Made by a program: the position numbers and the translations under genes | Notes under the pieces: model-generated | Told to the model about the DNA's origin: nothing | Databases searched by the model: none | Seen by the model: the letters and a program-made list of their open reading frames with translations, nothing else | From: a virus | Taxonomy: Duplodnaviria > Caudoviricetes | Direction: 5' to 3' (one strand) | Virus record (IMG/VR): IMGVR_UViG_3300000228_000009 | Location: 1-59,124 of that record | DNA length: 59,124 nucleotides | Part shown: piece by piece, positions 11,235 to 57,222 of the stretch | Position numbering within the stretch: position 1 is the first letter of the stretch | Layout of the letters: every line of letters starts with the position of its first letter

Positions 11235-12364
11235 TGTCCCCAGTTGGGGACATTTTACTAACCGAAATTTTAGTGCTAATCAATATTAAAACATTACTAA
11301 AAGGTGACTTATGAACGAGATAAATGAATTAAAAGCTGATGCTACATTAGAAGAACAATGCAACTATTTCAAAGAACAAGCAGTAAACTTTGCTTTAAAT
11401 TCTTTAGCTTTATCAAATAAATATGATCATGACGTTGCATTATTAATGTTTATGGTTGCTGAATATATACCATTTTTCGAAAATATGATGATTGATTTGG
11501 GCATGCAAGATGTTTTAGATAAATTTAAAAAAGAAAGATCTTTAAAAAAATAGAAGATTTTTGTCGCCCACTGGGCGACAAAACTACATAAGATTTGAAA
11601 TCTTTTTAAAAAATAGAATATTTTTGTTGCCCATTGGGCGACAAAATTTCATAAGATTTTTATGTTTAATAAACTAACATGTATATAATAGCAACAGAGT
11701 GATGTTTACAACTATAAAAAATTTAAACTTCAAGTAATAGATTACATCACCTATCTTAGTAGATAGTTCTATTAGAAGTTTTTAATGAAAGGTAAAACTA
11801 TGAACGAACTAATTGTAAAAGAACCATTTAATTTTTCTGTTATTGAAACAATGGAATCAGTTAAATTAACTGAAATGTCGTTTATGGATAGAACTAAACT
11901 TTATTGTGAAGTTGAAGCTAAGTCTTTTTATCTTCGCGGTAGAATTCTTCAATCAATAAAAGAAGACAACTGTTTTAAAGAAGCTGGTTACGAAACATTT
12001 GAAAAAGCTGTGAAAGATATTTTAAGTATTAGTAGGAGTTTTGCTTATAGAATTATGGATGCTACTACTACTTATGAAACTTTGTCGCCCACTGGGCGAC
12101 ATTTTTTGCCAACATCTGAAAGACAATTAAGACCTCTTACAGGATTAGAACCAGAACAACAAATTGAAGTATGGCAAGAAGTAGCTAAAGATAAAGTACC
12201 TACTGCTAAAGAAGTACAAAAAGCAGTAAATAAAAAATTAGGTAAAAATATTCCACAAAAAGATAAAATAAAAGTACCAGTAACATCCTTAGAAGTACCT
12301 ATAGTGCCTATTGAAGATATCACAGCTGCAAAATCTTATGAAATTTTGTCCACAATTGTGGACA
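11235..12364. repeat. family of five TGTY-N10/11-GACA palindromes (operator-like)
   Basis: 11235 TGTCCCCAGTTGGGGACA; 11562 and 12083 TGTCGCCCACTGGGCGACA; 11625 TGTTGCCCATTGGGCGACA; 12347 TGTCCACAATTGTGGACA. Confidence 0.85.
11311..11553 (+). CDS. hypothetical protein
   Basis: AAGGTG RBS, downstream of the consensus promoter. Confidence 0.6.
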   Translation: MNEINELKADATLEEQCNYFKEQAVNFALNSLALSNKYDHDVALLMFMVAEYIPFFENMMIDLGMQDVLDKFKKERSLKK

Positions 12365-32239: not shown

Positions 32240-32686
32240 ATGGAAATTAATATTGCATGTGTAAATATAGTTAAATTTTATGAAGGTTTTAGATCTAAAC
32301 CTTATTTAGATCCGGTTGGTATACCAACCATTGGGTATGGTTCCACTTATTATGAAAACTATACTAAAGTTACAATACAGGATCTACCTATAACGTCAGA
32401 AAGAGCTACACAGTTATTATTATATAACCTAAGTAAATTCGCTTCTGATATCACTGATATTGTTAAAGTGCCTTTAAATAATAATCAATTTAGTGCCTTA
32501 GTGAGTTTCTCATATAACGTAGGCTTAGGGGCATTTAAAAAATCAACATTATTAAAATTAGTCAACTCAGGTAATTTTATAGGTGCAGCTGAACAGTTTA
32601 TACGTTGGAACAAAGCAGGAGGAAAAGTATTACCTGGATTAACAAAGCGTAGAGAAGCAGAAAGAAATTTATGGCAAACCCCATAA
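32240..32686 (+). CDS. lysozyme/endolysin (GH24)
   Basis: YEG...YLDPVGIPTIGYG, ALVSFSYNVG, RWNKAGGKVLPGLTKRREAE. Confidence 0.95.
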   Translation: MEINIACVNIVKFYEGFRSKPYLDPVGIPTIGYGSTYYENYTKVTIQDLPITSERATQLLLYNLSKFASDITDIVKVPLNNNQFSALVSFSYNVGLGAFKKSTLLKLVNSGNFIGAAEQFIRWNKAGGKVLPGLTKRREAERNLWQTP

Positions 32687-32800
32687 AACTGTATTTTAAT
32701 AGAATTAAAGTGTGGTTAATGTAACCATACTTGTTTACAATGATTAAATTATATCTTTGTTTAGTCTTAATTTTAAAGTTTTTTAAATGAGGAGTATTAT

Positions 32801-33349
32801 ATGAATAATAGAGTTGAAGGTGTAGTAAAGTGGTTCATTAGCTGAGAGCCCTTTATACTGGTAACAGTATATCGAAACTCCTCTAATTGCTGGAACATCC
32901 TTATAGCCTAGTGAACTACAACGTAGATAAAAATATCAGACGTGAATGTTAAAAATTACTAGGATTGGACGATCAGCAGCTAAAGCCTTTTAAAATGGGT
33001 TAAGTTCAACGACCAGTCGTAAGACGTAGAGTAGAAGCTATTGCTACTTGAAATGGGGAGAATCCAAACATATTTGGATTTTGATATGGTCTTATCTTTA
33101 TGGAAACATAAAGCTATCTTAAGATAGAAATAATCAGTAGCGTGATTATTTAAAAACGTATAAGTTTCAGCCGACAGAGGGTATGGTTTTGCAGTAGTTA
33201 CTGGTGATAAGAAAGAGCAAGAATATTTTTTACACTTTTCTACAATTAATATGGATGGTTATAAAACTTTGAAAGCCAAACAAAAGATTTCATTTGTTTT
33301 AAAAGACACAGAAAAAGGTATACAAGCTACTGAAGTTGAGTTGCTATAA
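32801..33349 (+). CDS. csp: cold-shock domain protein, spliced (exons 32801-32834 and 33165-33349; 72 aa)
   Basis: joined exons give MNNRVEGVVKWFSADRGYGFAVVTGDKKEQEYFLHFSTINMDGYKTLKAKQKISFVLKDTEKGIQATEVELL with RNP1 and RNP2; GAGGAG RBS. Confidence 0.9.
32835..33164 (+). ncRNA. group I intron (330 nt, no ORF) in the csp gene
   Basis: P AATTGCTGGAA 32885, Q ATCAGCAG 32972, R GTTCAACGACCA 33004, S GATATGGTCT 33083; 5' exon ends in U, intron ends in G; IGS 32841-32854 pairs with both exons. Confidence 0.9.
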
Positions 33350-33780
33350 TGTATTTAAGTGAAATAGTTTTAAGGAAACGTTATCTAGAGTATAAACTTG
33401 ATACTATAGACAAGTACATACATAATATATGCAACATGTGTACAAATACAAATACAAGTACAGATTTATTGACTGGTGCTATAAGTTACAAGTTTGATTT
33501 ATTAAGCAAAATAAGAAGTCATAACGTTCTTATTAGTAATTTAAATAAAGAAACTTTTATAAACGTTAGTGGTGTTGAATTAAGTGTATTCGAAGCAATG
33601 CATTTGTTGAAAACTTTAGAAAGTAAATTAGATACTTTTACAAAACTTATTAAATCAGAAGCAGCGTCTTCTTTAGATGCGCTGACTATTTTTAGTAAAA
33701 ATGACATCTTGTTCGATGAATATCAAAATATATATTTAACAGTATTACAAAGTGATTTAATTACAAAATGGGAAGGTTAG
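33349..33780 (+). CDS. hypothetical protein
   Basis: start overlaps the csp stop codon. Confidence 0.6.
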   Translation: MYLSEIVLRKRYLEYKLDTIDKYIHNICNMCTNTNTSTDLLTGAISYKFDLLSKIRSHNVLISNLNKETFINVSGVELSVFEAMHLLKTLESKLDTFTKLIKSEAASSLDALTIFSKNDILFDEYQNIYLTVLQSDLITKWEG

Positions 33781-34910: not shown

Positions 34911-35891
34911 ATGAGTAAGTCAAACAAGTTGTTTTTTACTGGTGTTATTAAACCAGCATTTAATATTAAAAATTACACACTTTTAATTAGTGCGAAAGAT
35001 TATAAAGAACAGTACCAAAGATTTTATTACATTTGTGATTCAGGTGTAATTCATGAGACATGTTGGAATAATGTAAGTAGAGGTACTTTTTGTAGATGTA
35101 AAACAAAATTAAAAGCTTACAAAGAACTAAAAACATATATCAAAAGTAAGTGTGGTAGGATTCTCAAACCGTGGTTTGAGTTTATTGATGTTGATACGCC
35201 TGTAAGATGCAAGTGTTCAAATAATCATATATTTAGTCTGTCATTGTCTGACGCAAGAACAGGTGTGTGGTGTAATAAATGTTTTCGTGATGAAAAAGCT
35301 GTTAGTAGGATTATTAAAAATAACATAGCTTTGTATGATACTTTACATACGAAGCTACAGGAATGTGGTGAGAAAACTTTTGCAATACATGAAAATAATT
35401 TAAAGTTACTAGGTGTTTCTTGTAAGAACTGTAATGTTATTTTTCACCCAGGCCGGAGAGCTTCTTATGAACGAATAAGGTCTGCTTTGTACAATGGCAC
35501 TGGAAATAATTATTTCTTTTGTTCAAGTGCTTGTAAATATAATAGTGTTTACTACAACCAATGCATAATGGACTTTTCTAAATTTGAAAAAAGTGTTTTA
35601 AAATTTATTAAAACTTTTTATAAGAGTAAAATTAAAAATCATGATAGGTCTGTAATAGTTAATCCTACAACAGATAAAGCACTTGAGTTAGATTTTTATT
35701 TTCCGCATATTAATAAAGCTATCGAATGTAATGGAAGTTATTGGCATGCATCAGAAGTAGTAAAAGAAAGAGATAAAATAAAATTAAAGCAATGTGAGCA
35801 AGCAGATATAAAATTGCTTGTAATTGATGAATACTTATGGTATAATGATACATTAAATCAACAAGTAGTTATTAAAAATTTTTTACAATAA
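34911..35891 (+). CDS. free-standing homing-type endonuclease (Zn modules + Vsr/PD-(D/E)xK-like domain)
   Basis: LELDFYFPHINKAIECNGSYWH nuclease motif; Cys/His repeats. Confidence 0.7.
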   Translation: MSKSNKLFFTGVIKPAFNIKNYTLLISAKDYKEQYQRFYYICDSGVIHETCWNNVSRGTFCRCKTKLKAYKELKTYIKSKCGRILKPWFEFIDVDTPVRCKCSNNHIFSLSLSDARTGVWCNKCFRDEKAVSRIIKNNIALYDTLHTKLQECGEKTFAIHENNLKLLGVSCKNCNVIFHPGRRASYERIRSALYNGTGNNYFFCSSACKYNSVYYNQCIMDFSKFEKSVLKFIKTFYKSKIKNHDRSVIVNPTTDKALELDFYFPHINKAIECNGSYWHASEVVKERDKIKLKQCEQADIKLLVIDEYLWYNDTLNQQVVIKNFLQ

Positions 35892-37784: not shown

Positions 37785-40700
37785 ATGTCTAAACTAACCA
37801 AAAACATGGATATTGTTTTACAACAAGGTCCAGAAATGATCGAGTTTTATAGAAACAATCCTTGTATTGCTGCATATGAATTACTTGGTGTAGATCTGGC
37901 TCCTGTACAACGTATAGTATTTGAGGCTATGTGGTTTAAGCCGTATGTACTGGCAATATGTTCTAGAGGTATGGGAAAAACCTTTTTGTCTGGGGTACTT
38001 GCATCATTACTAACTTTGTTATATCCTGGATATAGGGTGGGCCTGATAGCCCCTAGTTTCCGCCAGTGTTTATTAGTATCAGATACTAACGCTACTTTTT
38101 GGACATCCGATGGCTTAAGTGTAGCAGAGAATTTTTATAATGCTATTGAGTGTGGTACTACACATGTTCAGTCCTTGTACAATAATAACCTAATAGTAAA
38201 TAAGTGGAAAAACCCCAAAAGACCTTGTATAAAGATAGATACAGAACGTGGTTTTTCTGTTGGTGGTACATTGGATCATAGGTTACTAACAATAGACACA
38301 AACATGGATTTGGTTTACACTAATTTATCTGATATTACAAAAGACACTTATATAGCTATAAAAAAGGGTTTTAATTTATATGGTGATAGTATTAAACTTC
38401 CAGATGTTTTTATTGAAGAATCTTACAGGAACAAATGCTGTACGCTCCCTAAAACTATGACAAAAGATTTTGCTTATTGGCTAGGATTACTAATAGGTGA
38501 CGGTAGTATAGAATATAATGAGACTGCTGGAAAATATAGAGTATGTTTCTATAGCTCAGATTATGAGTTAACTGAAAGTTTTAAAAAAATAGGCACTAAA
38601 TTATTTGGTATTAATCCTTGGAAAGATGTTGATAGAAATGGTAATATTTCTTCTTGTTTTAATAACAAGAAAATGCTCAGGTTTTTACTAAGTTGTGGTT
38701 TAACCACAAATAACTCTCCACTAAAATATATACCTCATGTAATATGTAAAGCACCTAAAAGTTATATAGTAGAGTTTGTGGCAGGGTTGTTAGATACAGA
38801 CGGTAACGTTTCTCAATTTACAGACAATAATTACAAATGGATATCAATAGGTTTAACAACTTCATCAAAAAGGTTGGCAGAGGAGTATAAAGCAGTTTTA
38901 CTTAATATTGGCGTTATGTCATCTACTAGTATTGATGATAGGCTTGATAAAAATTATATAGTAGATCATATAGCAACTAAGAAGTATCTATCATATAATA
39001 TAACAGTTTCTGGTTTTGATGATATATGTACTTTTCACAAACATATTAAATTTAAGTTAAAAAGAAAACAAGAACTTATTGATGGGTACATAGAAAATAA
39101 GTCTTGTAAAATAAGTAATACTAATAAACTTCCTTATTCCTTACCATATTATAAAGAATTATTGATACATCTAAATACTACACATAGTAAGCTACTTACA
39201 GAAAATGAACTTATTTTAGCTCGTATGGGGATACGTTGTTGCCACAAAAATAAATCACAAAGTATCACATGTAAAAAACTACTTCAAGTGTTATCAATAT
39301 ATGATAAGTATAACTTACATCATACAGCTATTAGTAAAATAGAAAACTTATTAAACTTAAATTTATGTTTTGTTAAACCAAAAGAAATTACTAGTTTATT
39401 CGAAGAAACTATAGATATTGAAGTAGTTAACGAATCTTGTTATTTTAGTAGTGGTTTTATTAGTCATAACTCTAAAATGATATTTAATGAGGTTGAGAAA
39501 TTATATTCTAAATCACCTATATTACGCGAAGCAACAGAGAAGAGACCTATTCGTGGATCTGACACTTGTTACTTAAAATATAAATCTTCCGCAGGAACAA
39601 ACGGTTCCTTTATTGAAGCCCTCCCATTAGGAGCAGATGGGGCCAAAATTCGTGGTTCTCGTTTTTATTGTTTGTTGGTGGATGAGTTCGCACAAGTACC
39701 ATCAAAAATAATAGAAACAGTTCTAGCACCAATGAGTATTACTAAATTAGATCCTATGAATAAAGTACGGGAGTTGGAACGTAGAAAGTCTTTGATAGCG
39801 GCAGGTTTAGCATCAGGGGATGATTTTGAGGAAGATTCTGTGAATAAAATGATCGGGACTTCATCTGGTTACTACAAGTTTAATCATATGTATAAACGTA
39901 TGAAGGAGTATTGGAATCAGATAGATGCTGGATCACAGGATCATGCAGTTTTCCAGATACCTTATACAGCACTACCTGAAGGTTTCCTTGATCCTAAGAA
40001 TATAGAAAATGCTGAAAGGGTTATGTCAAGTCATGAGTTTGCTATGGAGTATTTGGGAGCCATGGTGAGTGACTCAGAAGGTTTTTTTAAAGCGTCTGTT
40101 TTAGAAAAATGTACAACTTCCGATCATTCTTTAGAATTATCAGGAGAAAAAGAAGTTAGTTATATTATTGGTATAGATCCTAACCAAGGTGGTAAAGCTA
40201 AATGTGGTGTTGTAATAATTAGGCTCGGAAGACCAAATAAGATAGTAAGAGTTTTAGCTCTTGATGGTAAAACTACACAAGACATAACAACGTCTCTTCA
40301 GGATTTATGTAATTCTTACAATGTTATAAGGGTGTTCATGGATAGGGGCGGCGGCGGAAAGGCAGTATCTGATTTGCTGGCTGAAGGATATAATAATTCG
40401 GAACCTATATTAAATATAAACGACAAAGACAACTTAAAGATTAAAGGTAGACGTATACTAGATCTCATAGCTTTTAGTACTTCATGGATCGCCGACGCAA
40501 ATTTCGCAGCATTATCTTTATTTGAAGACACTAATCTTATGTTTCCACAGGTACCTTTATATAATGTTGATGATAAAGTACAAGATGTTATTTATAATAA
40601 TTATGACCTTATATATGAATTAAAAAGACAGTGTTTAAACATTGTTGTTACACAAACTTCTGGTGGGGCTTTACATTTTGATACACCTAAAAAAGGACAA

Positions 40701-40910
40701 AACAAGGACTTGTATTCTGCTTTAATTTTAGCTTGTTATGGTGTTAAAGCTTTAGAACATGAGTCTACAGATGCTGTTTCTTCTAACTCTTTTCATTCTA
40801 CTGGTGGTTTAGTTAGAGGACATGATGGTGGTAATTGGTCAAACACACCATCAAGTATTGTTTTATCATCAGCAGCTTTATCAATGGCTGTTTTAAATAA
40901 GAAAAAATAA
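37785..40910 (+). CDS. terL: terminase large subunit containing an intein (extein ~573 aa)
   Basis: Walker A SRGMGKT, Walker B LLVDEF, nuclease IGIDP and KDLYSAL. Confidence 0.92.
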   Translation: MSKLTKNMDIVLQQGPEMIEFYRNNPCIAAYELLGVDLAPVQRIVFEAMWFKPYVLAICSRGMGKTFLSGVLASLLTLLYPGYRVGLIAPSFRQCLLVSDTNATFWTSDGLSVAENFYNAIECGTTHVQSLYNNNLIVNKWKNPKRPCIKIDTERGFSVGGTLDHRLLTIDTNMDLVYTNLSDITKDTYIAIKKGFNLYGDSIKLPDVFIEESYRNKCCTLPKTMTKDFAYWLGLLIGDGSIEYNETAGKYRVCFYSSDYELTESFKKIGTKLFGINPWKDVDRNGNISSCFNNKKMLRFLLSCGLTTNNSPLKYIPHVICKAPKSYIVEFVAGLLDTDGNVSQFTDNNYKWISIGLTTSSKRLAEEYKAVLLNIGVMSSTSIDDRLDKNYIVDHIATKKYLSYNITVSGFDDICTFHKHIKFKLKRKQELIDGYIENKSCKISNTNKLPYSLPYYKELLIHLNTTHSKLLTENELILARMGIRCCHKNKSQSITCKKLLQVLSIYDKYNLHHTAISKIENLLNLNLCFVKPKEITSLFEETIDIEVVNESCYFSSGFISHNSKMIFNEVEKLYSKSPILREATEKRPIRGSDTCYLKYKSSAGTNGSFIEALPLGADGAKIRGSRFYCLLVDEFAQVPSKIIETVLAPMSITKLDPMNKVRELERRKSLIAAGLASGDDFEEDSVNKMIGTSSGYYKFNHMYKRMKEYWNQIDAGSQDHAVFQIPYTALPEGFLDPKNIENAERVMSSHEFAMEYLGAMVSDSEGFFKASVLEKCTTSDHSLELSGEKEVSYIIGIDPNQGGKAKCGVVIIRLGRPNKIVRVLALDGKTTQDITTSLQDLCNSYNVIRVFMDRGGGGKAVSDLLAEGYNNSEPILNINDKDNLKIKGRRILDLIAFSTSWIADANFAALSLFEDTNLMFPQVPLYNVDDKVQDVIYNNYDLIYELKRQCLNIVVTQTSGGALHFDTPKKGQNKDLYSALILACYGVKALEHESTDAVSSNSFHSTGGLVRGHDGGNWSNTPSSIVLSSAALSMAVLNKKK
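38067..39470 (+). mobile_element. intein with LAGLIDADG homing endonuclease (468 aa)
   Basis: FRQ|CLLV N-junction, ISHN|S C-junction, DHR block B, WLGLLIGDG and VAGLLDTDG motifs. Confidence 0.92.
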
Positions 40911-43679: not shown

Positions 43680-44754
43680 ATTTTATATGACAGCAGGTTT
43701 AAATTACGTTGAGGAAACCGAGGACCTACATAAAGTAGCTGCTTCTGTAATACCTTTACCAGATATAAACAAAAGACAACCAGATTTGGCTTATTTTACA
43801 AGTAGGTTTGTAAGTTCTGGAACGAATTTAAATAACGCTCATTTTATGGGAAGTGAATTAGTAAAAGCTAGAAACTCTATTGTTGCCAAAGCAGTTGATG
43901 TAGAACATGCTGAAGATGAGATTATAGGTCATATTTACGCTTGCGAGTTTACTGATAAAGATGGTGTTAGACTTGACATTAGTGAATTGTCACAATTAGA
44001 ATCAACTAAACTTGATGCACAAGATATGCACATTGAAATTGCTAGTGTGGTTTATAAAACACGTTTTTCAGCATTAGCTAATGAAATAAAAAACGGTGAT
44101 TGGTGTGTATCAATGGAAGCTTACTATACAAACTACGATGTAATGGTCGGTGGTACATTAATGACAGCTGAAGAAGCACAATTAATGGGCTTTGACGTGG
44201 CTAACGAGTCTTTATATGGTAAGTCTGCTAAAGTTGTAAAATCAGGAGAAGTAATAGACCAAGGAGTTGTTGCTAAAGTTTTACGAGGTATATGTTTTTC
44301 AGGTGTAGGTATTGTAAAAAATCCAGCAAATAAACCTTCAATAGTTTTTGAAGCCACAGCAGGAAATGAGAATACATTAGAAAATGAAGATATTGTCTTT
44401 GATTATTCAAAACTTAATGATATTAATAATGTAACCTCTACTAATGTAGATATGAAAGCAACATCAGCTGAGGATTCACCTGGTATTTGTGTTTTCTATG
44501 ATAAAGAGAAAATCGATTCTATATTTAAAGATCAAGACTCAGAAGTTTTAAATACAAATTGGTGTAGCAAATTTGACACAAGTTGTACAAGTACAGGTGA
44601 TTACACCAGTTCTTTGTGTTTAGCTAAAGTGTATACTGATGACTACTTAGAAGCTTTTATAACTGAAGTAGCAAATAAAAAAATTAAGGAGTTACATAAT
44701 GACAAAGAAGTGAAAAGACTAGTTAATGAAATTAATGTATTAGTTAAAAAATAA
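43669..44754 (+). CDS. prohead (capsid maturation) protease
   Basis: NLNNAHF, DVEH, VSMEAY and FSGVGIVKNPA motifs; position between portal and scaffold. Confidence 0.65.
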   Translation: MKYKFYMTAGLNYVEETEDLHKVAASVIPLPDINKRQPDLAYFTSRFVSSGTNLNNAHFMGSELVKARNSIVAKAVDVEHAEDEIIGHIYACEFTDKDGVRLDISELSQLESTKLDAQDMHIEIASVVYKTRFSALANEIKNGDWCVSMEAYYTNYDVMVGGTLMTAEEAQLMGFDVANESLYGKSAKVVKSGEVIDQGVVAKVLRGICFSGVGIVKNPANKPSIVFEATAGNENTLENEDIVFDYSKLNDINNVTSTNVDMKATSAEDSPGICVFYDKEKIDSIFKDQDSEVLNTNWCSKFDTSCTSTGDYTSSLCLAKVYTDDYLEAFITEVANKKIKELHNDKEVKRLVNEINVLVKK

Positions 44755-45533: not shown

Positions 45534-46160
45534 ATGTTTATTCCAAGACATCCCGTAGTTGAAGATCAGTTTTGTTTATATGGCAGTTCTGTTGACGCCA
45601 CAGGTATTGGTGGTACAATTGCTTATGCCGGAGCTGTTGTTTATCTAGACGACACTAAAGAGGAATCTGAAGTATTAAAGATGGCTCATGGTGTTACTGC
45701 CGATCCTTTCGGTTTCTTAATGCAGAAAGTTAAAACTGGTTACCATTCTGTACATCCAGTGGGTTTTGTTATGCCTGGGGATCTAGGTTCCAGTGACGCT
45801 ATAGCTCAGCCAACCTACAGCAATGCTGGTGCTATTACTGGCACCACTACTGTTCCAGTAGGTGTTGCTCATCTTGGTATTTATGATACCATTCACTACA
45901 CTTGTGTTAAAACAACTGTAAGTGGTGTAGCTAGTGTTGCTGATGGAAGTCAGCCTAAACCAGGCCAGTCATTATTCGCCGCAGCTGAAGATGCAAAAGT
46001 TACCAATTCTACAGTAGCTTCTACAGGTACTGATATTCTTGGTCAACGTTGTAGCACAGTTGTTGTTGCTAAGGTTGTTAAGGGTGTTAGTGCTGCTAAG
46101 GCCGCATCTACCTTTAATGGTGGAACAAAATATGCTTTACGTATTAAACTTCTAGTTTAA
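45534..46160 (+). CDS. head decoration/cement-like protein
   Basis: Gly/Ala/Val/Thr-rich protein directly upstream of the capsid gene. Confidence 0.5.
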   Translation: MFIPRHPVVEDQFCLYGSSVDATGIGGTIAYAGAVVYLDDTKEESEVLKMAHGVTADPFGFLMQKVKTGYHSVHPVGFVMPGDLGSSDAIAQPTYSNAGAITGTTTVPVGVAHLGIYDTIHYTCVKTTVSGVASVADGSQPKPGQSLFAAAEDAKVTNSTVASTGTDILGQRCSTVVVAKVVKGVSAAKAASTFNGGTKYALRIKLLV

Positions 46161-46232
46161 TATAAGATGGATTAAGGGGTAGATACAGTGTCTACCCTTC
46201 CATAAATAAATACAATTCATAAGGAGATTAAA

Positions 46233-49200
46233 ATGGATATCGTTGAAATGAGAAAACTGTTCGCAGCTACGGCTGAAGTACAGACTCCAGAGGGTATGGC
46301 AGCTTACCGAGCTTTCGCTGCTGCTATTACTGTACCTATCTTACAGAAGGTAGAGCTTGAATCTATTATGCGTCAGCTCTTTGCTGTTGAAAAATTAGCT
46401 CCAGGTGCTCAAGCAGTCTACCCGGTCGCTGAAGATTTCGAGATTAATTAAGTAGGAGTCTCGTAACTTGGCTATATGCTGGAAACTCCTGGTAGGTCTT
46501 AAGTACCAAAGTGTAAAAATCTTAAGAATAGGGATAATCAGCAGGAAAGATAAATTATGAATATATTAAAAGACAATAAAGATTTGTTATACAATTTATA
46601 TGTAAAACAAGAAAAGTCATTATCTAGTATTGCTAAAGATTATAGTATTTCTTCTATGACAGTTGCAGCTTGGTTAAAAAGGGTTGGTATAGAAACCAGA
46701 AAGTCATCTGTTAATATTTATAAAGAAATAAAAAATACAGAATTTAGTGATGAACAAAAGAGCTTGATTATAGGATCTATTTTAGGTGATGGTTCTATTA
46801 CAAAAGGAAAAGATTGTAAAAATGCTAGGTTTGTTGAAAGACACTGTGCGGAACAGCTTAATTACTTACAGTGGAAAAATAGTATACTTAAACCTTTTGT
46901 AAAGTCTAACCTTATAAAAACTCCTGGAGGATGTCATATTATATCAGGTGTTATTTGTACTACTCAAGATAGTTACATTTTATCTACTATAACACATCCT
47001 TATCTAACTGAATTATATAACAAGTTCTACCCTAAAGGTAAGAAGTGCATACCAGAAGATTTAAATTACAATTTAACCGCATTATCAATTGCTGTTTGGT
47101 TGTGTGATGATGGTTGTATTACTTGTAATCCTGGAAACAGTACCTATAGGTTAGATTTACATACAGAGAGTTTTACATATAATGAAAATCTTTTTTTATG
47201 TAGAGAAGTGTTATCTAAATTTTTTGGTTTGGGTTTTAGAATAAACACTAGAATGTATAAATCAGGAAGAGCTTACTATATATGTATAAGTGGTAAAGAT
47301 AATTTAAGACGCATTACTAGTTTTTTGAAACCATTTATACCAAGCTGTATGCTACATAAATTTAAATATTATTTATAATTTATATCCTCAACGACTATAC
47401 GCCAAGAACTTTAATTAGTTAAGATATAGTCTGAACTACATAGAGATATGTAGAGGAAAAGTCGAAGGTACTCAGACCTTCTAAAGAAGAACTTTTCCCG
47501 CCTATGAAAATAGGTCACAAAAGTAACAGAAATTTGTCCTGTTTGGGTATTACCTGGTTTAGGTTATCAGGCACAGAATTTTATTGAAGGAATTGGGGAA
47601 GAGGTTGGCATGTAATATAGGCCTCGTAACTTGACTATATGCTGGAAACTCCGGTAAGGCTTTAAATACTTAACCTATTGAAAAATGAGGAAGTGAAAAT
47701 TTTAAAGATACGGACAATCAGCAGGAAAGATGAGATTATATGAAAAAAATAGATGTACCAGAATATGAATTACTAAATAATTTATATACAGAAGAAAAAA
47801 AGTCTTTAATAGATATAGCAACTATATGCAACACATCTGCTATGACTGTTAGATCTTGGTTAAATAATTTAGGTATTGAAATTAAACAAGCTAATAATGA
47901 CATATATAAAGAGTTAAGATATGTAAGCTTAGGAGATCACCAAAAAAGTATCATAATAGGTTCTTTATTAGGTGATGGTAGTCTTAGAATACCTAAACGT
48001 GGAAAAAATGCTCATTTTTATGAAAAGCATAGCGTTGATCAAGAAGAGTATTTACATTGGAAATACGATAATTTAAAACCTTTCTCTATACATATACATA
48101 GAGAGTTAGGTAAAGAGAATCATAATATTTCAGGTGTAGCTTGTTCTACTAAAGATTCTGTAAAATTAACTACAACAGCTAATTCAGACTTAACTAAATT
48201 ATGGAAGTTATGGTATAAAGGCAATGGTAATAAAATTATACCACATAATTTAGATGACTACTTTAATAAGTTGGTGCTGGCTGTATGGATTTGTGATGAT
48301 GGTTCTTTTGTTTGGAATAACATTAGAAGAACATATAGGTTAGATCTTCACACAGAGTCTTTTACTTACAAAGAACAAGTTAGACTAGTAGAAAGTATAT
48401 ATAAATTATTCAAAGGTAACATACTTATAATACCAAGGAAGTACAACAGTGGGGAAAAATTTTATTTAAGTTTACGTAATAAAGTAGCTCTTCATGAACT
48501 TTGCTTGTCACTTAAACAGTATGTTCCTGAGTGTATGTGGTATAAATTTAATACAAACATATAATTTCAAATCCTCAACGACTATATGTCAAGAACTTTA
48601 ATTAGTTAAGATATAGTCTGAACTTACGGGAAACCGTAAGAGGGAGAGTTTAAATACCCTCCCCGCCTATGAAAATAGGTTACAAAAGTAACAGAACGCT
48701 ATGTACCCACATTCAGTATTAATGCTTCCGCAGATTGGAAGATTACCTATGCTCGTGATTCTCGTATTGATATAGTTCAGAGAACTGCAGCTAGAGTTGC
48801 AAAAGATTTAGCAAACTATGAGGAAGAGTGCGGTTGGAGAGTAATTGTTCCAGCAGCTACATCTGGTTTTGCAGGTAAAGGTTTGTTAGGTGCTCGTCCA
48901 GCTCCTATTTATGAAATTCCTACAGGTTCTGCTGGACAAGGTTACCTTTCTAAGGAATTGGTAAACAAAATGTTAGTTGGTTTTAAGCGTTTAGGTAGAA
49001 CTCTCACAGACCTATATGTTTCTCCAGAGGATGCAGCTGATATTCGTGAGTGGACTGATACTGATATTGATCCAATTACTCGTAGAGAAGTGTTTACTGC
49101 TGCTGGTATGGGTAGTATTTGGAATGTTGCTCTTCATGAAGTACAACATTTAGGAGCACCAGGTCTTTACAATATTAATGGTAGTACCTCTCAGTATGGT

Positions 49201-49485
49201 AAGTTCTTAGCTGATGGTACTAATAAGTATAATGCCTACACATTAGATAATCCTAATGTAGTTGATGCAGATGGTACCGTTACTACACTTGGCGAAACTC
49301 AGATTTATGGTTTTGACATGACTGCTAATGACTCCCTTGTTATGCCTATTCGTAAAGAGTATGAGGCACACGAAGATCCAACCTTGTTACGGGTGCAGAA
49401 ACAAGGATTCTTTGGATGGGCTGAACTTGGCTTCTGTTGTTTGGATAGCCGTATGCTTGGTATTGGTGTTATTGATCGTTCATAA
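46233..49485 (+). CDS. major capsid protein, spliced (exons 46233-46444, 47537-47605, 48699-49485; 355 aa)
   Basis: exons join in frame: ...AEDFEI|PVWVLPGLGYQAQNFIEGIGEEV|YVPTFSINASADW...; total 1068 nt; followed by a strong terminator. Confidence 0.85.
46445..47536 (+). mobile_element. group I intron 1 in the capsid gene (with homing endonuclease ORF)
   Basis: TATGCTGGAAACTC, AATCAGCAGG, CTCAACGACTA, AAGATATAGTCT cores; IGS AGGAGTCTCG pairs with CGAGAU and UCCU; ends in G. Confidence 0.9.
46557..47378 (+). CDS. intron-encoded LAGLIDADG endonuclease
   Basis: IIGSILGDG and IAVWLCDDG motifs; N-terminal HTH-like segment. Confidence 0.9.
   Translation: MNILKDNKDLLYNLYVKQEKSLSSIAKDYSISSMTVAAWLKRVGIETRKSSVNIYKEIKNTEFSDEQKSLIIGSILGDGSITKGKDCKNARFVERHCAEQLNYLQWKNSILKPFVKSNLIKTPGGCHIISGVICTTQDSYILSTITHPYLTELYNKFYPKGKKCIPEDLNYNLTALSIAVWLCDDGCITCNPGNSTYRLDLHTESFTYNENLFLCREVLSKFFGLGFRINTRMYKSGRAYYICISGKDNLRRITSFLKPFIPSCMLHKFKYYL
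47606..48698 (+). mobile_element. group I intron 2 in the capsid gene (with homing endonuclease ORF)
   Basis: same core elements as intron 1; IGS ATAGGCCTC pairs with GAGGU and CUAU; ends in G48698. Confidence 0.9.
47740..48564 (+). CDS. intron-encoded LAGLIDADG endonuclease (paralog of 46557)
   Basis: IIGSLLGDG, LAVWICDDG; shared TYRLDLHTESFTY. Confidence 0.9.
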   Translation: MKKIDVPEYELLNNLYTEEKKSLIDIATICNTSAMTVRSWLNNLGIEIKQANNDIYKELRYVSLGDHQKSIIIGSLLGDGSLRIPKRGKNAHFYEKHSVDQEEYLHWKYDNLKPFSIHIHRELGKENHNISGVACSTKDSVKLTTTANSDLTKLWKLWYKGNGNKIIPHNLDDYFNKLVLAVWICDDGSFVWNNIRRTYRLDLHTESFTYKEQVRLVESIYKLFKGNILIIPRKYNSGEKFYLSLRNKVALHELCLSLKQYVPECMWYKFNTNI

Positions 49486-49640: not shown

Positions 49641-51074
49641 ATGCAAGAATTTAAAACTAAAGTTTGTTTGATGTGTAATGAAGAATACTCACCTACCAGC
49701 CCAAAACAAAAATTTTGTATTAGTTGTAAAGAAAAAGCTGTAAAATTAGCTCAGGCCGAGAGAGACAAAAAACGCAATCGTTTGAAACATAGTACTGTTT
49801 ATGAAAGAATTTGCCCTTTTTGTGAAGCACATTTTCAAACATTTGACTCTAAGAAAAAATACTGTGGTTCTGAAGAATGTGAAAATTTTAGATGTAAGTT
49901 GAAAAGCAAAGTTGGTCATGTTAGAAGGGATAAAACAGCTTTACTTGAGAAAGGAAGAAAATACTATAGTGACAATACAGATAAATGTAGATTAAGTACT
50001 GCTACCAGATATAGAAAAAATAATACAGATGCAAAAGATTACGTTTCTAGAGGTAAGTTTAGGAATTCTTATGAAGAAGTAAAAACTTACATTGAATCTG
50101 AAGGTTATAAACTGATGTCAGATACTTACATAAATAATAGAACTAAACTATCATTACAATGTTCAGAAGGACACCAGTATAGAGCAACTTATCATAGTTT
50201 TAGAAATAATGGTGGTGTACTTGGTAACAGGTGTCCATATTGTTATAGACAAAATAATTATGTGTCAAAACCAGAACAACTAGTTAGAGACTTCATTCAA
50301 ACACACTTCCCTGACTTACAAGTTATTTACAATGACCGCAGTGTCCTAAAGCCAAAAGAACTTGATATTTACATACCATCAAAAAATTTAGCTATCGAAG
50401 TATGTGGGTTATATTGGCACAGTGAAACAGTCACAGGAAAGCCAAAATCTTATCATTACGATAAAATGATGGGTTGTTACGCTAAAGGTATTCAGTTGAT
50501 TACAATATTTGAAGATGAATTATATGAATATAAAGATGTAGTCTTTTCAAATATAAGACAGGCACTAGGAGAAACTCTAAATAAAATTTGTGTCGAAGAT
50601 TGTAATCTAAAAGAAATAACTTTAAAGGAAGCTAATGACTTCTACTCAAAATATCATTTGTGTGGTAAAACTACTGGTACCATCAGTTATGGTTTGTTAC
50701 ATGAAAATAAACTAATTTGTGCATGTAGTGTAGGTCCAGTAATAAAAAATAACAAAGCAAGTGCGTTTAAACTTGATATAAAAAGATTTTGTACTTTACC
50801 AGACACATATTTATCTGATGGATTCACTACAATATTTGAAACAATTAAAACCAATCATAGCTACAAAGAGATAATAGCACATTGTGATATGCGGTATTCC
50901 AACATGTCAGACGATCTATATGCAAGACACGGTTTTACTTTGTTGACACAATCAAAATTTACACCTCATTATTTCAAAAGTCAAAAAAGATTTAAAAATT
51001 CATTAAATGCAAACAATAATTATGGATTAATTTGGGATTGTGGTCATAGAACCCACATTTATAAAATAAACTAA
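49641..51074 (+). CDS. free-standing homing-type endonuclease (Zn fingers + Vsr-like nuclease + GNAT-like C-terminus)
   Basis: KELDIYIPSKNLAIEVCGLYWHSE, ITIFEDE, CDMRYS, IWDCG; multiple CxxC. Confidence 0.75.
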   Translation: MQEFKTKVCLMCNEEYSPTSPKQKFCISCKEKAVKLAQAERDKKRNRLKHSTVYERICPFCEAHFQTFDSKKKYCGSEECENFRCKLKSKVGHVRRDKTALLEKGRKYYSDNTDKCRLSTATRYRKNNTDAKDYVSRGKFRNSYEEVKTYIESEGYKLMSDTYINNRTKLSLQCSEGHQYRATYHSFRNNGGVLGNRCPYCYRQNNYVSKPEQLVRDFIQTHFPDLQVIYNDRSVLKPKELDIYIPSKNLAIEVCGLYWHSETVTGKPKSYHYDKMMGCYAKGIQLITIFEDELYEYKDVVFSNIRQALGETLNKICVEDCNLKEITLKEANDFYSKYHLCGKTTGTISYGLLHENKLICACSVGPVIKNNKASAFKLDIKRFCTLPDTYLSDGFTTIFETIKTNHSYKEIIAHCDMRYSNMSDDLYARHGFTLLTQSKFTPHYFKSQKRFKNSLNANNNYGLIWDCGHRTHIYKIN

Positions 51075-57124: not shown

Positions 57125-57222
57125 TTGATATTGATGGCGGATAGGATCGCTTCCGAAAAGCTGCAACTCACAGCCTGCCGCCATTATTTATTTTGAGTAA
57201 AGTTCAAAAGGAGTTTTGAAAA

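Follow-up and report, generated by a model that had tools for sequence, protein, structure and literature searches.

The window analysed here, that is, the whole of the 59,124-base IMG/VR virus record IMGVR_UViG_3300000228_000009 (33% GC; estimated to be 22% complete, which gives about 270 kb for the whole phage genome), holds on its plus strand a gene of the cspA cold-shock family (csp) which is interrupted by a group I intron without an open reading frame (ORF). Very probably, this intron is an IA-type selfish element which invaded the gene, is made near-harmless by splicing and has no regulatory part to play; it is possibly still mobile, and phenotypically neutral, in the element-rich genome of a jumbo phage. 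The sporadic occurrence and the variety of the introns found in csp genes of related phages, together with the richness of the window in other elements of this kind, point to a selfish element aimed at a conserved motif, and not to a conserved regulatory design; the insertion site, which falls within the KWF Phe codon and precedes the motif that we take to be RNP1 by four codons, is highly conserved both as DNA and as protein. As group I introns are familiar from phage genes, and a single jumbo phage may have dozens, the element itself is ordinary; what is new is its host gene, coding for a cold-shock-family RNA chaperone, and the presence in this gene of two neighbouring insertion sites.

The Split csp Gene and Its Predicted Spliced Product

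The boundaries given by the original prediction hold without change: exon 1 (32801-32834; 34 nt) comprises 11 codons and the first base of the Phe codon and ends in the U of the splice site; the intron (32835-33164; 330 nt), delimited by a family-model match and by a check of its helices, has G33164 as its last base; exon 2 (33165-33349) comprises the second and third bases of the Phe codon, 60 codons and the stop, and encodes RNP1, RNP2 and the remaining cold-shock domain (CSD). A Shine-Dalgarno sequence, GAGGAGU (32789-32795), placed from the sequence, from the nascent-RNA fold and by comparison with relatives, lies 6 nt 5' of the ATG; all of these features are on the plus strand. Read without splicing from the ATG at 32801, the message gives the 14-residue peptide MNNRVEGVVKWFIS, also foreseen by the original prediction, and then an in-frame UGA (32843-32845), while a second frame (33167-33346) gives 60 residues. 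Since exon 1 has only 34 nt, gene callers will miss csp.

When the two exons are joined in silico, TGG-T is joined to TT-TCA, the predicted ligated junction reads TGGT/TTTCAGCC, and the resulting 219 nt encode 72 amino acids and a stop. The spliced product aligns without gaps with 20 of 20 uninterrupted homologues of 71-73 amino acids, taken from a large protein collection; the translation of exon 1 lines up with the N-termini of all 20, and the twelve residues over the junction, KWFSADRGYGFA, are identical in three of them (P0005, P0008, and P0009). Because the spliced product is collinear with uninterrupted homologues, the splice junction originally proposed is right; an ambiguity of one base in its position (T/TT or TT/T) is settled because the intron must end in a terminal G.

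Exon 2 alone matches the Pfam family CSD (PF00313; E 2.5e-13, 50.1 bits, cut-off 27) and phrog_729, cold shock protein. The exon 2 product contains RGYGFA and YFLHF, presumably the RNP1 and RNP2 motifs, and the conserved residues of the nucleic-acid-binding face of the CSD (W11, Y18, F20, F33, and H35) are present. Like other members of the CspA family (PF00313), the protein has about 70 amino acids, a CSD match and the conserved aromatic residues; unlike them, it is phage-encoded, belongs to a distinct clade and is split by an intron, and it is at most 53% identical to P0019 and P0020, which of the 20 homologues stand farthest from it.

Group I Identity and Helices of the Intron

The Rfam model RF00028 (Intron_gpI) matches 32825-33113 over its full length (model positions 1-253) with 76.2 bits, against a gathering score of 50 (E 1.9e-19, with a 901-nt query), and an RF00028 search of the phage's own genome gives the same csp intron match. 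In whole-window Rfam scans the csp intron was missed (no match at default settings, and a match to int-alpA RNA only in a permissive scan); this miss is an effect of the speed filters in a longer, AT-rich query, and is therefore no evidence against the intron. The absence of a reading frame, claimed from the beginning, is borne out as well: the longest ORFs overlapping the intron have 28 amino acids on the plus strand and 33 on the minus strand, the latter running into exon 1, and none of those overlapping it is an endonuclease ORF.

The positions of the paired segments (P) were assigned manually on the cmscan alignment, and a script then tested the pairing in each sequence; for P6/P6a of the window intron the assignment drew on the sequence as well, and the script rows for P6, P6a, and GGT of P1 were not used there. 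Both of the pairings that the original prediction had proposed for the internal guide sequence, one with the end of the 5' exon, closed by a U.G pair at the splice site, and one with UUUCAGC at the beginning of the 3' exon, are recovered. The guide occupies 32841-32854, where 32848-32854 form P1 with 32827-32834 of the 5' exon, by means of GGU/GCC (including U32834.G32848 at the splice site) and AAAG/CUUU, and 32841-32847 form P10, in which the guide GCUGAGA pairs at seven of seven positions with UUUCAGC and which directly adjoins P1.

The remaining helices, likewise on the plus strand, comprise the P2 hairpin (32855-32870; 6 bp, with a GUAA loop); P3, whose 5' strand (32878-32883) pairs at six of six positions with 33055-33060; P4 (32888-32893/32973-32978; 6/6 pairs); P5 (32897-32901/32961-32965; 5/5 pairs), which carries a 59-nt extension (32902-32960); P6/P6a (32979-33005); P7, with GACCA (33011-33015) as its 5' strand and UGGUC (33087-33091) as its partner (5/5 pairs); the hairpins P7.1 (33016-33025) and P7.2 (33030-33048), between P7 and the 3' strand of P3; the P8 hairpin (33062-33079; 7 bp, 7/7 pairs); and P9 (33097-33112), P9.1 (33114-33127) and P9.2 (33128-33151), found in the pairing check and followed by the terminal G33164. 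The core helices P3 to P8 thus stand in the canonical order, with the P3/P7 pseudoknot, and the predicted fold of 32815-33185 is better than that of shuffled sequences (z-score -4.29; none of 100 shuffles as good). Judged from its sequence, the csp intron is a genuine group I intron, in which every defining feature that can be looked for in silico is present. Hairpins such as P7.1 and P7.2, between P7 and the 3' strand of P3, are a mark of IA-type introns, and by criteria of this kind the csp intron probably belongs to subgroup IA2.

From these features we infer that splicing takes place, and without the help of a protein; the intron is in all likelihood self-splicing. In the folded pre-mRNA, the end of the 5' exon, AAAG(U)GGU, would pair with the guide GCCCUUU in P1, where U32834.G32848 would mark the site, and a free guanosine held in P7 would attack after U32834; the guide GCUGAGA would then hold the 3' exon UUUCAGC in P10, G33164 would enter the guanosine site, and ligation of the exons would give TGG-TTT-TCA and the 72-residue cold-shock protein. 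The intron would persist through splicing of this kind, which would leave the phage nearly unharmed.

Distribution among Related csp Loci

In IMG/VR the 12 csp loci nearest to that of the window, which make up 8 distinct sequences and show 63-88% protein identity to it over exon 2, are all uninterrupted; their empty site reads GT(W)AARTGGT/TY, the slash marking the point of insertion, and the closest relatives have in common the gene order ClpP, lysozyme, csp, orf143, deoxynucleoside monophosphate (dNMP) kinase, orf96, orf77, and orf191. The shared gene order and the empty site thus make csp a stable core gene, and the intron an insertion in the lineage of the window. A wider profile-based scan of IMG/VR gave 46 csp loci, 42 of them unsplit and 4 split, three at this same site and one at another.

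The three loci split at the same site (L032, L033, and L034, identical in this region) carry a homologous intron of 263 nt (L033:1245-1507), without ORF, which scores 88.2 bits with RF00028; its junctions are AAATGGT, an intron starting with TCATTA and ending in G, and then TTAGTAAT. The fourth, L041, carries a group I intron of 264 nt (L041:1237-1500; 86.0 bits), of the same broad type and again without ORF, whose site is shifted 13 nt downstream and separates the Arg codon of RNP1 from its Gly codon. The csp genes of L033 and L041 are 89% identical as DNA, and their introns stand at different sites; moreover, the same-site intron of L033 occurs in a more distant clade, in which ClpP is 54% identical to that of the window, as against 68-72% in the intron-less relatives. 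Since the two intron sites are 13 nt apart, in and beside RNP1, the DNA of this motif appears as a hot spot for introns.

An RF00028 search of the 234-kb record of L041 missed the 86-bit csp intron and found another intron, at 71842-72064. Whole-record Rfam scans thus lose true introns, and intron counts derived from them are lower bounds; that standard whole-contig scans missed an intron of 76 bits in the window calls for the same caution.

Outside these four loci no further split csp was encountered. A metagenome scan, in which one of two search patterns spans both intron sites, gave no split csp in the best 80 of at least 568 relatives, where no match begins beyond query residue 7; a tblastn search with exon 2 against 50,697 records of cultured phages gave 16 records, all below 45% identity and none split; and exact scans of IMG/VR with two 21-nt stretches of the intron gave no match, near-identical records lying possibly outside those scans. 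Over the loci compared, the distribution of the intron is sporadic, and it is not a conserved part of csp expression in this phage group.

Comparison of the Three csp Introns

The window intron and that of L033, which lacks the 59-nt extension of P5, are identical at 198 of 260 aligned positions, compared with 141 of 212 for the spliced coding sequences. The script check of helices covers the L033 intron apart from P5a, P6, P7.1, and P9.1, and the L041 intron apart from P6 and P9.1; in a MAFFT alignment of the three introns, P2 (of L041), P5, and P9.2 are out of register, and formal pair counts were not used. Between the window and L033, positions at which both sides of a pair have changed with the pair kept number two in P2, one in P5, and one in P7; P3 has a single one-sided change, from C-G to U.G, and no core pair is broken. 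Compensatory changes of this kind speak for a ribozyme that has been maintained. The change in P7 had been singled out by the original prediction, which set GACCA/UGGUC against the GACUA/UAGUC of two other introns of the window (those with LAGLIDADG ORFs, described below); this compensatory substitution, of C-G for U-A, is real, and GACUA/UAGUC is found in L033 and L041 too.

In the peripheral hairpins P7.1, P7.2, P9.1, and P9.2, the sequences of the window and L033 introns differ and the hairpins stand at the same positions; at the place of P7.1 and P7.2, L041 has hairpins of different sequence too. The P1 guide GCCCUUU is common to the window and L033, P10 of the latter being weak; the guide and P3 of L041 differ from those of both, and its 3' domain resembles that of L033. 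Since the 3' domain of L033 is thus nearer to that of L041 than to that of the window, the introns look modular.

A Proposed Regulatory Role for Splicing

The occurrence of the intron in the gene of an RNA chaperone had led the original prediction to the idea that splicing is a temperature or folding switch, or part of a positive feedback loop with Csp, for which no supporting result was obtained. In its full form this idea has splicing set the level of Csp as a sensor of temperature or RNA folding, Csp in turn aiding the splicing of its own intron and of two introns in a putative capsid gene, and it is considered very unlikely. It draws on the fact that the host gene encodes a CSD protein and, by analogy, on passages in two papers (PMC3984707, PMC3017892) according to which splicing of the T4 td intron is promoted by general RNA chaperones, among them StpA, S12, and IF1, the last of which belongs to the same fold class as Csp and can complement a csp double knock-out. 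Its reach among relatives is small: 42 of the 46 related csp loci have no intron, so that csp is kept without it; the introns of L033 and L041 differ from that of the window and from one another; and retention of the intron across relatives is not what is seen.

Exon 1 has 34 nt and an in-frame stop lies within the guide, so that translation and formation of P1 must compete; furthermore, translation could be coupled to folding through the Shine-Dalgarno sequence GAGGAGU, to which ACUCCUC (32877-32883), a stretch that includes the 5' strand of P3, is exactly complementary, and the two are paired in the minimum-energy fold of 32770-32900. The same is found in L033, where Shine-Dalgarno sequence and P3 strand are AAAGGAGU and ACUCCUUU. 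A special form of the regulatory idea, in which the intron has been adopted as a folding sensor, with competition among Shine-Dalgarno/P3 pairing, ribosome loading, folding of the ribozyme and the stop in the guide, and with an autocatalytic loop between chaperone and intron, is very unlikely indeed. If it held, the output of Csp would follow RNA-folding conditions such as temperature, and Csp would aid the splicing of three introns; such an interplay of chaperone and intron would make a neat natural system, and at present it is no more than a possibility.

Any strong ribosome-binding site will find a complement in a GGAG/CUCC helix, and L041 has the same Shine-Dalgarno sequence as L033 together with an unrelated P3; the complementarity is therefore probably inherent to the GGAG/CUCC helix, or due to chance. 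The nascent-RNA fold, moreover, is not meaningfully better than that of shuffled sequences (z-score -1.83; 7 of 200 shuffles as good). There is no long leader of the cold-shock type at csp, and promoter-like sites do not exceed chance (5 found, 4.6 expected), which applies likewise to the terminator scan.

Strain Variation and Mobility

The reading as a selfish invader is further informed by strain variants in DNA sequencing runs. Contigs from three other runs (soil, cave, and biofilm) span the whole intron, and a fourth run has pieces of it; among the strains of these four runs there is no joint over the intron and no intron-less allele. Between 32640 and 33199, runs X4, X5, and X8 scarcely depart from the window, with one listed difference and at most two; this block runs from the last part of the lysozyme gene through the intergenic region, exon 1 and the intron to the first 35 nt of exon 2. 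In contig record 15 of X5 (32458-33404), there are 21 differences in all, one of them not listed; 15 fall within the 182 nt of 32458-32639, one within the block and 4 within the 205 nt of 33200-33404. By the sole listed difference of the block, 33100 A>G, a P9 pair passes from A-U to G.U and is kept. The strain changes in exon 2 consist of two synonymous ones and one double change, by which T24 becomes D, the residue of the relatives; as changes are either synonymous or towards the residue of relatives, csp is under purifying selection.

The uniformity of the block fits a recent spread with co-conversion, or constraint, and the block could be a tract of recombination or co-conversion round the intron. 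The weight of this contrast is lessened by the upstream lysozyme gene, which is variable anyway (38-56% identity among relatives). The intron has no endonuclease of its own and would therefore depend, for any ongoing spread, either on recombination between co-infecting relatives or on an endonuclease encoded elsewhere.

A candidate helper for this mobility is a free-standing ORF of 326 amino acids (34911-35891, plus strand), 1.56 kb downstream of the intron, which resembles homing endonucleases (phrog_559, E 4.2e-21; phrog_3339, E 1.4e-10). According to a scheme of collaborative homing, its product would cut the KWF site in co-infecting relatives whose csp is uninterrupted, and would thereby mobilise the intron and protect the genome; we regard this as unlikely. 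The match to homing/HNH endonuclease families and the short distance agree with the scheme, and so does the sporadic presence of the ORF, which is inserted here between orf77 and orf191 and which 12 of the 13 syntenic relatives that cover this place are without; the mechanism is described for ORF-less phage introns in part of a review (PMC3984707), and a near-identical block between diverged flanks would fit co-conversion. The one relative that has the ORF, L017, has it in a 52% identical form beside an intron-less csp; L033 and L041 have csp introns and no such ORF at the orf77/orf191 junction, and the divergence upstream of the block is perhaps just that of a variable lysozyme module. By eye, though with family libraries left unscanned, there is no endonuclease-like ORF among those listed near csp in L145, nor among those between csp and the dNMP kinase gene in the genome of L033.

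Points that weigh against a spliced, neutral and mobile intron concern each of these properties. As regards splicing, 20 sequencing runs are listed as holding the region, and none is on record as RNA; in P1 one U (U32831) is bulged or mismatched, and P6 is the weakest element of the structure, with two non-standard pairs flagged by cmscan. The unpaired U and the imperfect P6 would also suit a dead end, with an intron that splices no longer and a csp inactivated in this lineage; this is highly improbable in view of an intact ribozyme core, a score well above the family cut-off and exons which both keep their frame and conserved residues, and in view of strain changes that comprise two synonymous ones, one to the residue of relatives and one in P9 that preserves its pair. 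As regards mobility, the csp intron is without an endonuclease gene of its own, and the nearest endonuclease-like gene does not track the csp intron, L017 having the gene and not the intron. As regards neutrality, the sporadic distribution may be compatible with a role adopted in a single lineage, and function could explain why the intron is nearly identical from strain to strain, just as recent spread could.

Relation to Known Introns

The introns of T4 td, nrdB, and nrdD/sunY and other phage introns of IA2 type resemble the csp intron in that a group I ribozyme with P7.1/P7.2 hairpins sits in a conserved phage protein gene, and the reading frame meets a stop codon shortly past the 5' splice site. 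They differ from it in their hosts, which are genes of nucleotide metabolism, polymerases or structural proteins and not that of a CSD RNA chaperone, and in that the csp intron has neither an endonuclease ORF nor a recognisable remnant of one. In a DNA comparison with 50,697 phage records, the core of the window intron is matched best in a split RNA polymerase beta gene of Serratia phage vB_SmaM_2050HW (79% over 142 nt) and in a split DNA helicase gene of Salmonella phage phA11 (82% over 121 nt); the Serratia copy comes with an endonuclease gene, unlike the csp intron.

More than half of viral group I introns are stated to be IA2 in part of an intron-database paper (PMC11835236), and phage introns tend to occupy conserved protein-coding genes, as a 2014 review puts it (PMC3984707, in part). 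The collaborative homing systems treated in passages of the same review are alike in having an ORF-less intron at a conserved site and a free-standing endonuclease-like gene nearby. The Jug phages, as described in the main text of PMC12880540, are alike in their large genomes, with several group I introns, inteins and stand-alone endonucleases in essential genes; they have 18.5 introns per genome, in terL, nrdD, and polymerase genes, and neither 'cold shock' nor 'csp' occurs in that main text, the supplementary tables being outside this scope. Cold-shock genes are not mentioned in the portion of the 2014 review that was covered (PMC3984707), and no report of a group I intron in a csp gene was found in full-text literature searches, the host-gene table of the intron database (PMC11835236) and the Jug-phage supplements lying outside them.

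Other Elements and Features of the Window

The window is rich in further selfish elements. A second free-standing ORF of the same homing/HNH endonuclease family, phrog_559, lies at 49641-51074 (E 1.3e-57), and an intein interrupts a terminase-like ORF (37785-40910; Terminase_6C, a weak match), where Intein_splicing scores 34.8 bits, just below its cut-off of 35.8, and LAGLIDADG_3 gives E 1.7e-18. A gene of the head region (45534-49485) is cut by two LAGLIDADG_2 ORFs (46557-47378 and 47740-48564), which are followed by 3' parts of group I ribozymes at 47313-47453 (26.3 bits) and 48519-48640 (35.2 bits; cut-off 50 in both cases). The original prediction had called this the capsid gene; among PDB sequences, its last exon ORF weakly matches 6wkk_A, the chain of a major capsid protein (E 0.0041), which lends weak support to the name; the exon ORFs have no Pfam or PHROG match, the first exon ORF has no PDB sequence match, and the split gene has no tblastn match among phages.

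In the own-genome search, RF00028 has three further, very weak candidate matches, at 12044-12217, 44391-44536, and 46477-46543 (12.5-15.1 bits; E 0.006-0.04), which are probably noise or fragments. No tRNA gene is found within the window. The int-alpA RNA (RF02996) is matched at 57134-57198 with 38.9 bits (gathering score 35.8; E 0.00015), in the permissive whole-window scan only and not in the scan at the gathering threshold. Finally, in orf143, the gene directly after csp, strain variants in two runs carry 12-nt, TACAAG-like repeat insertions at 33446-33452, with the frame kept.

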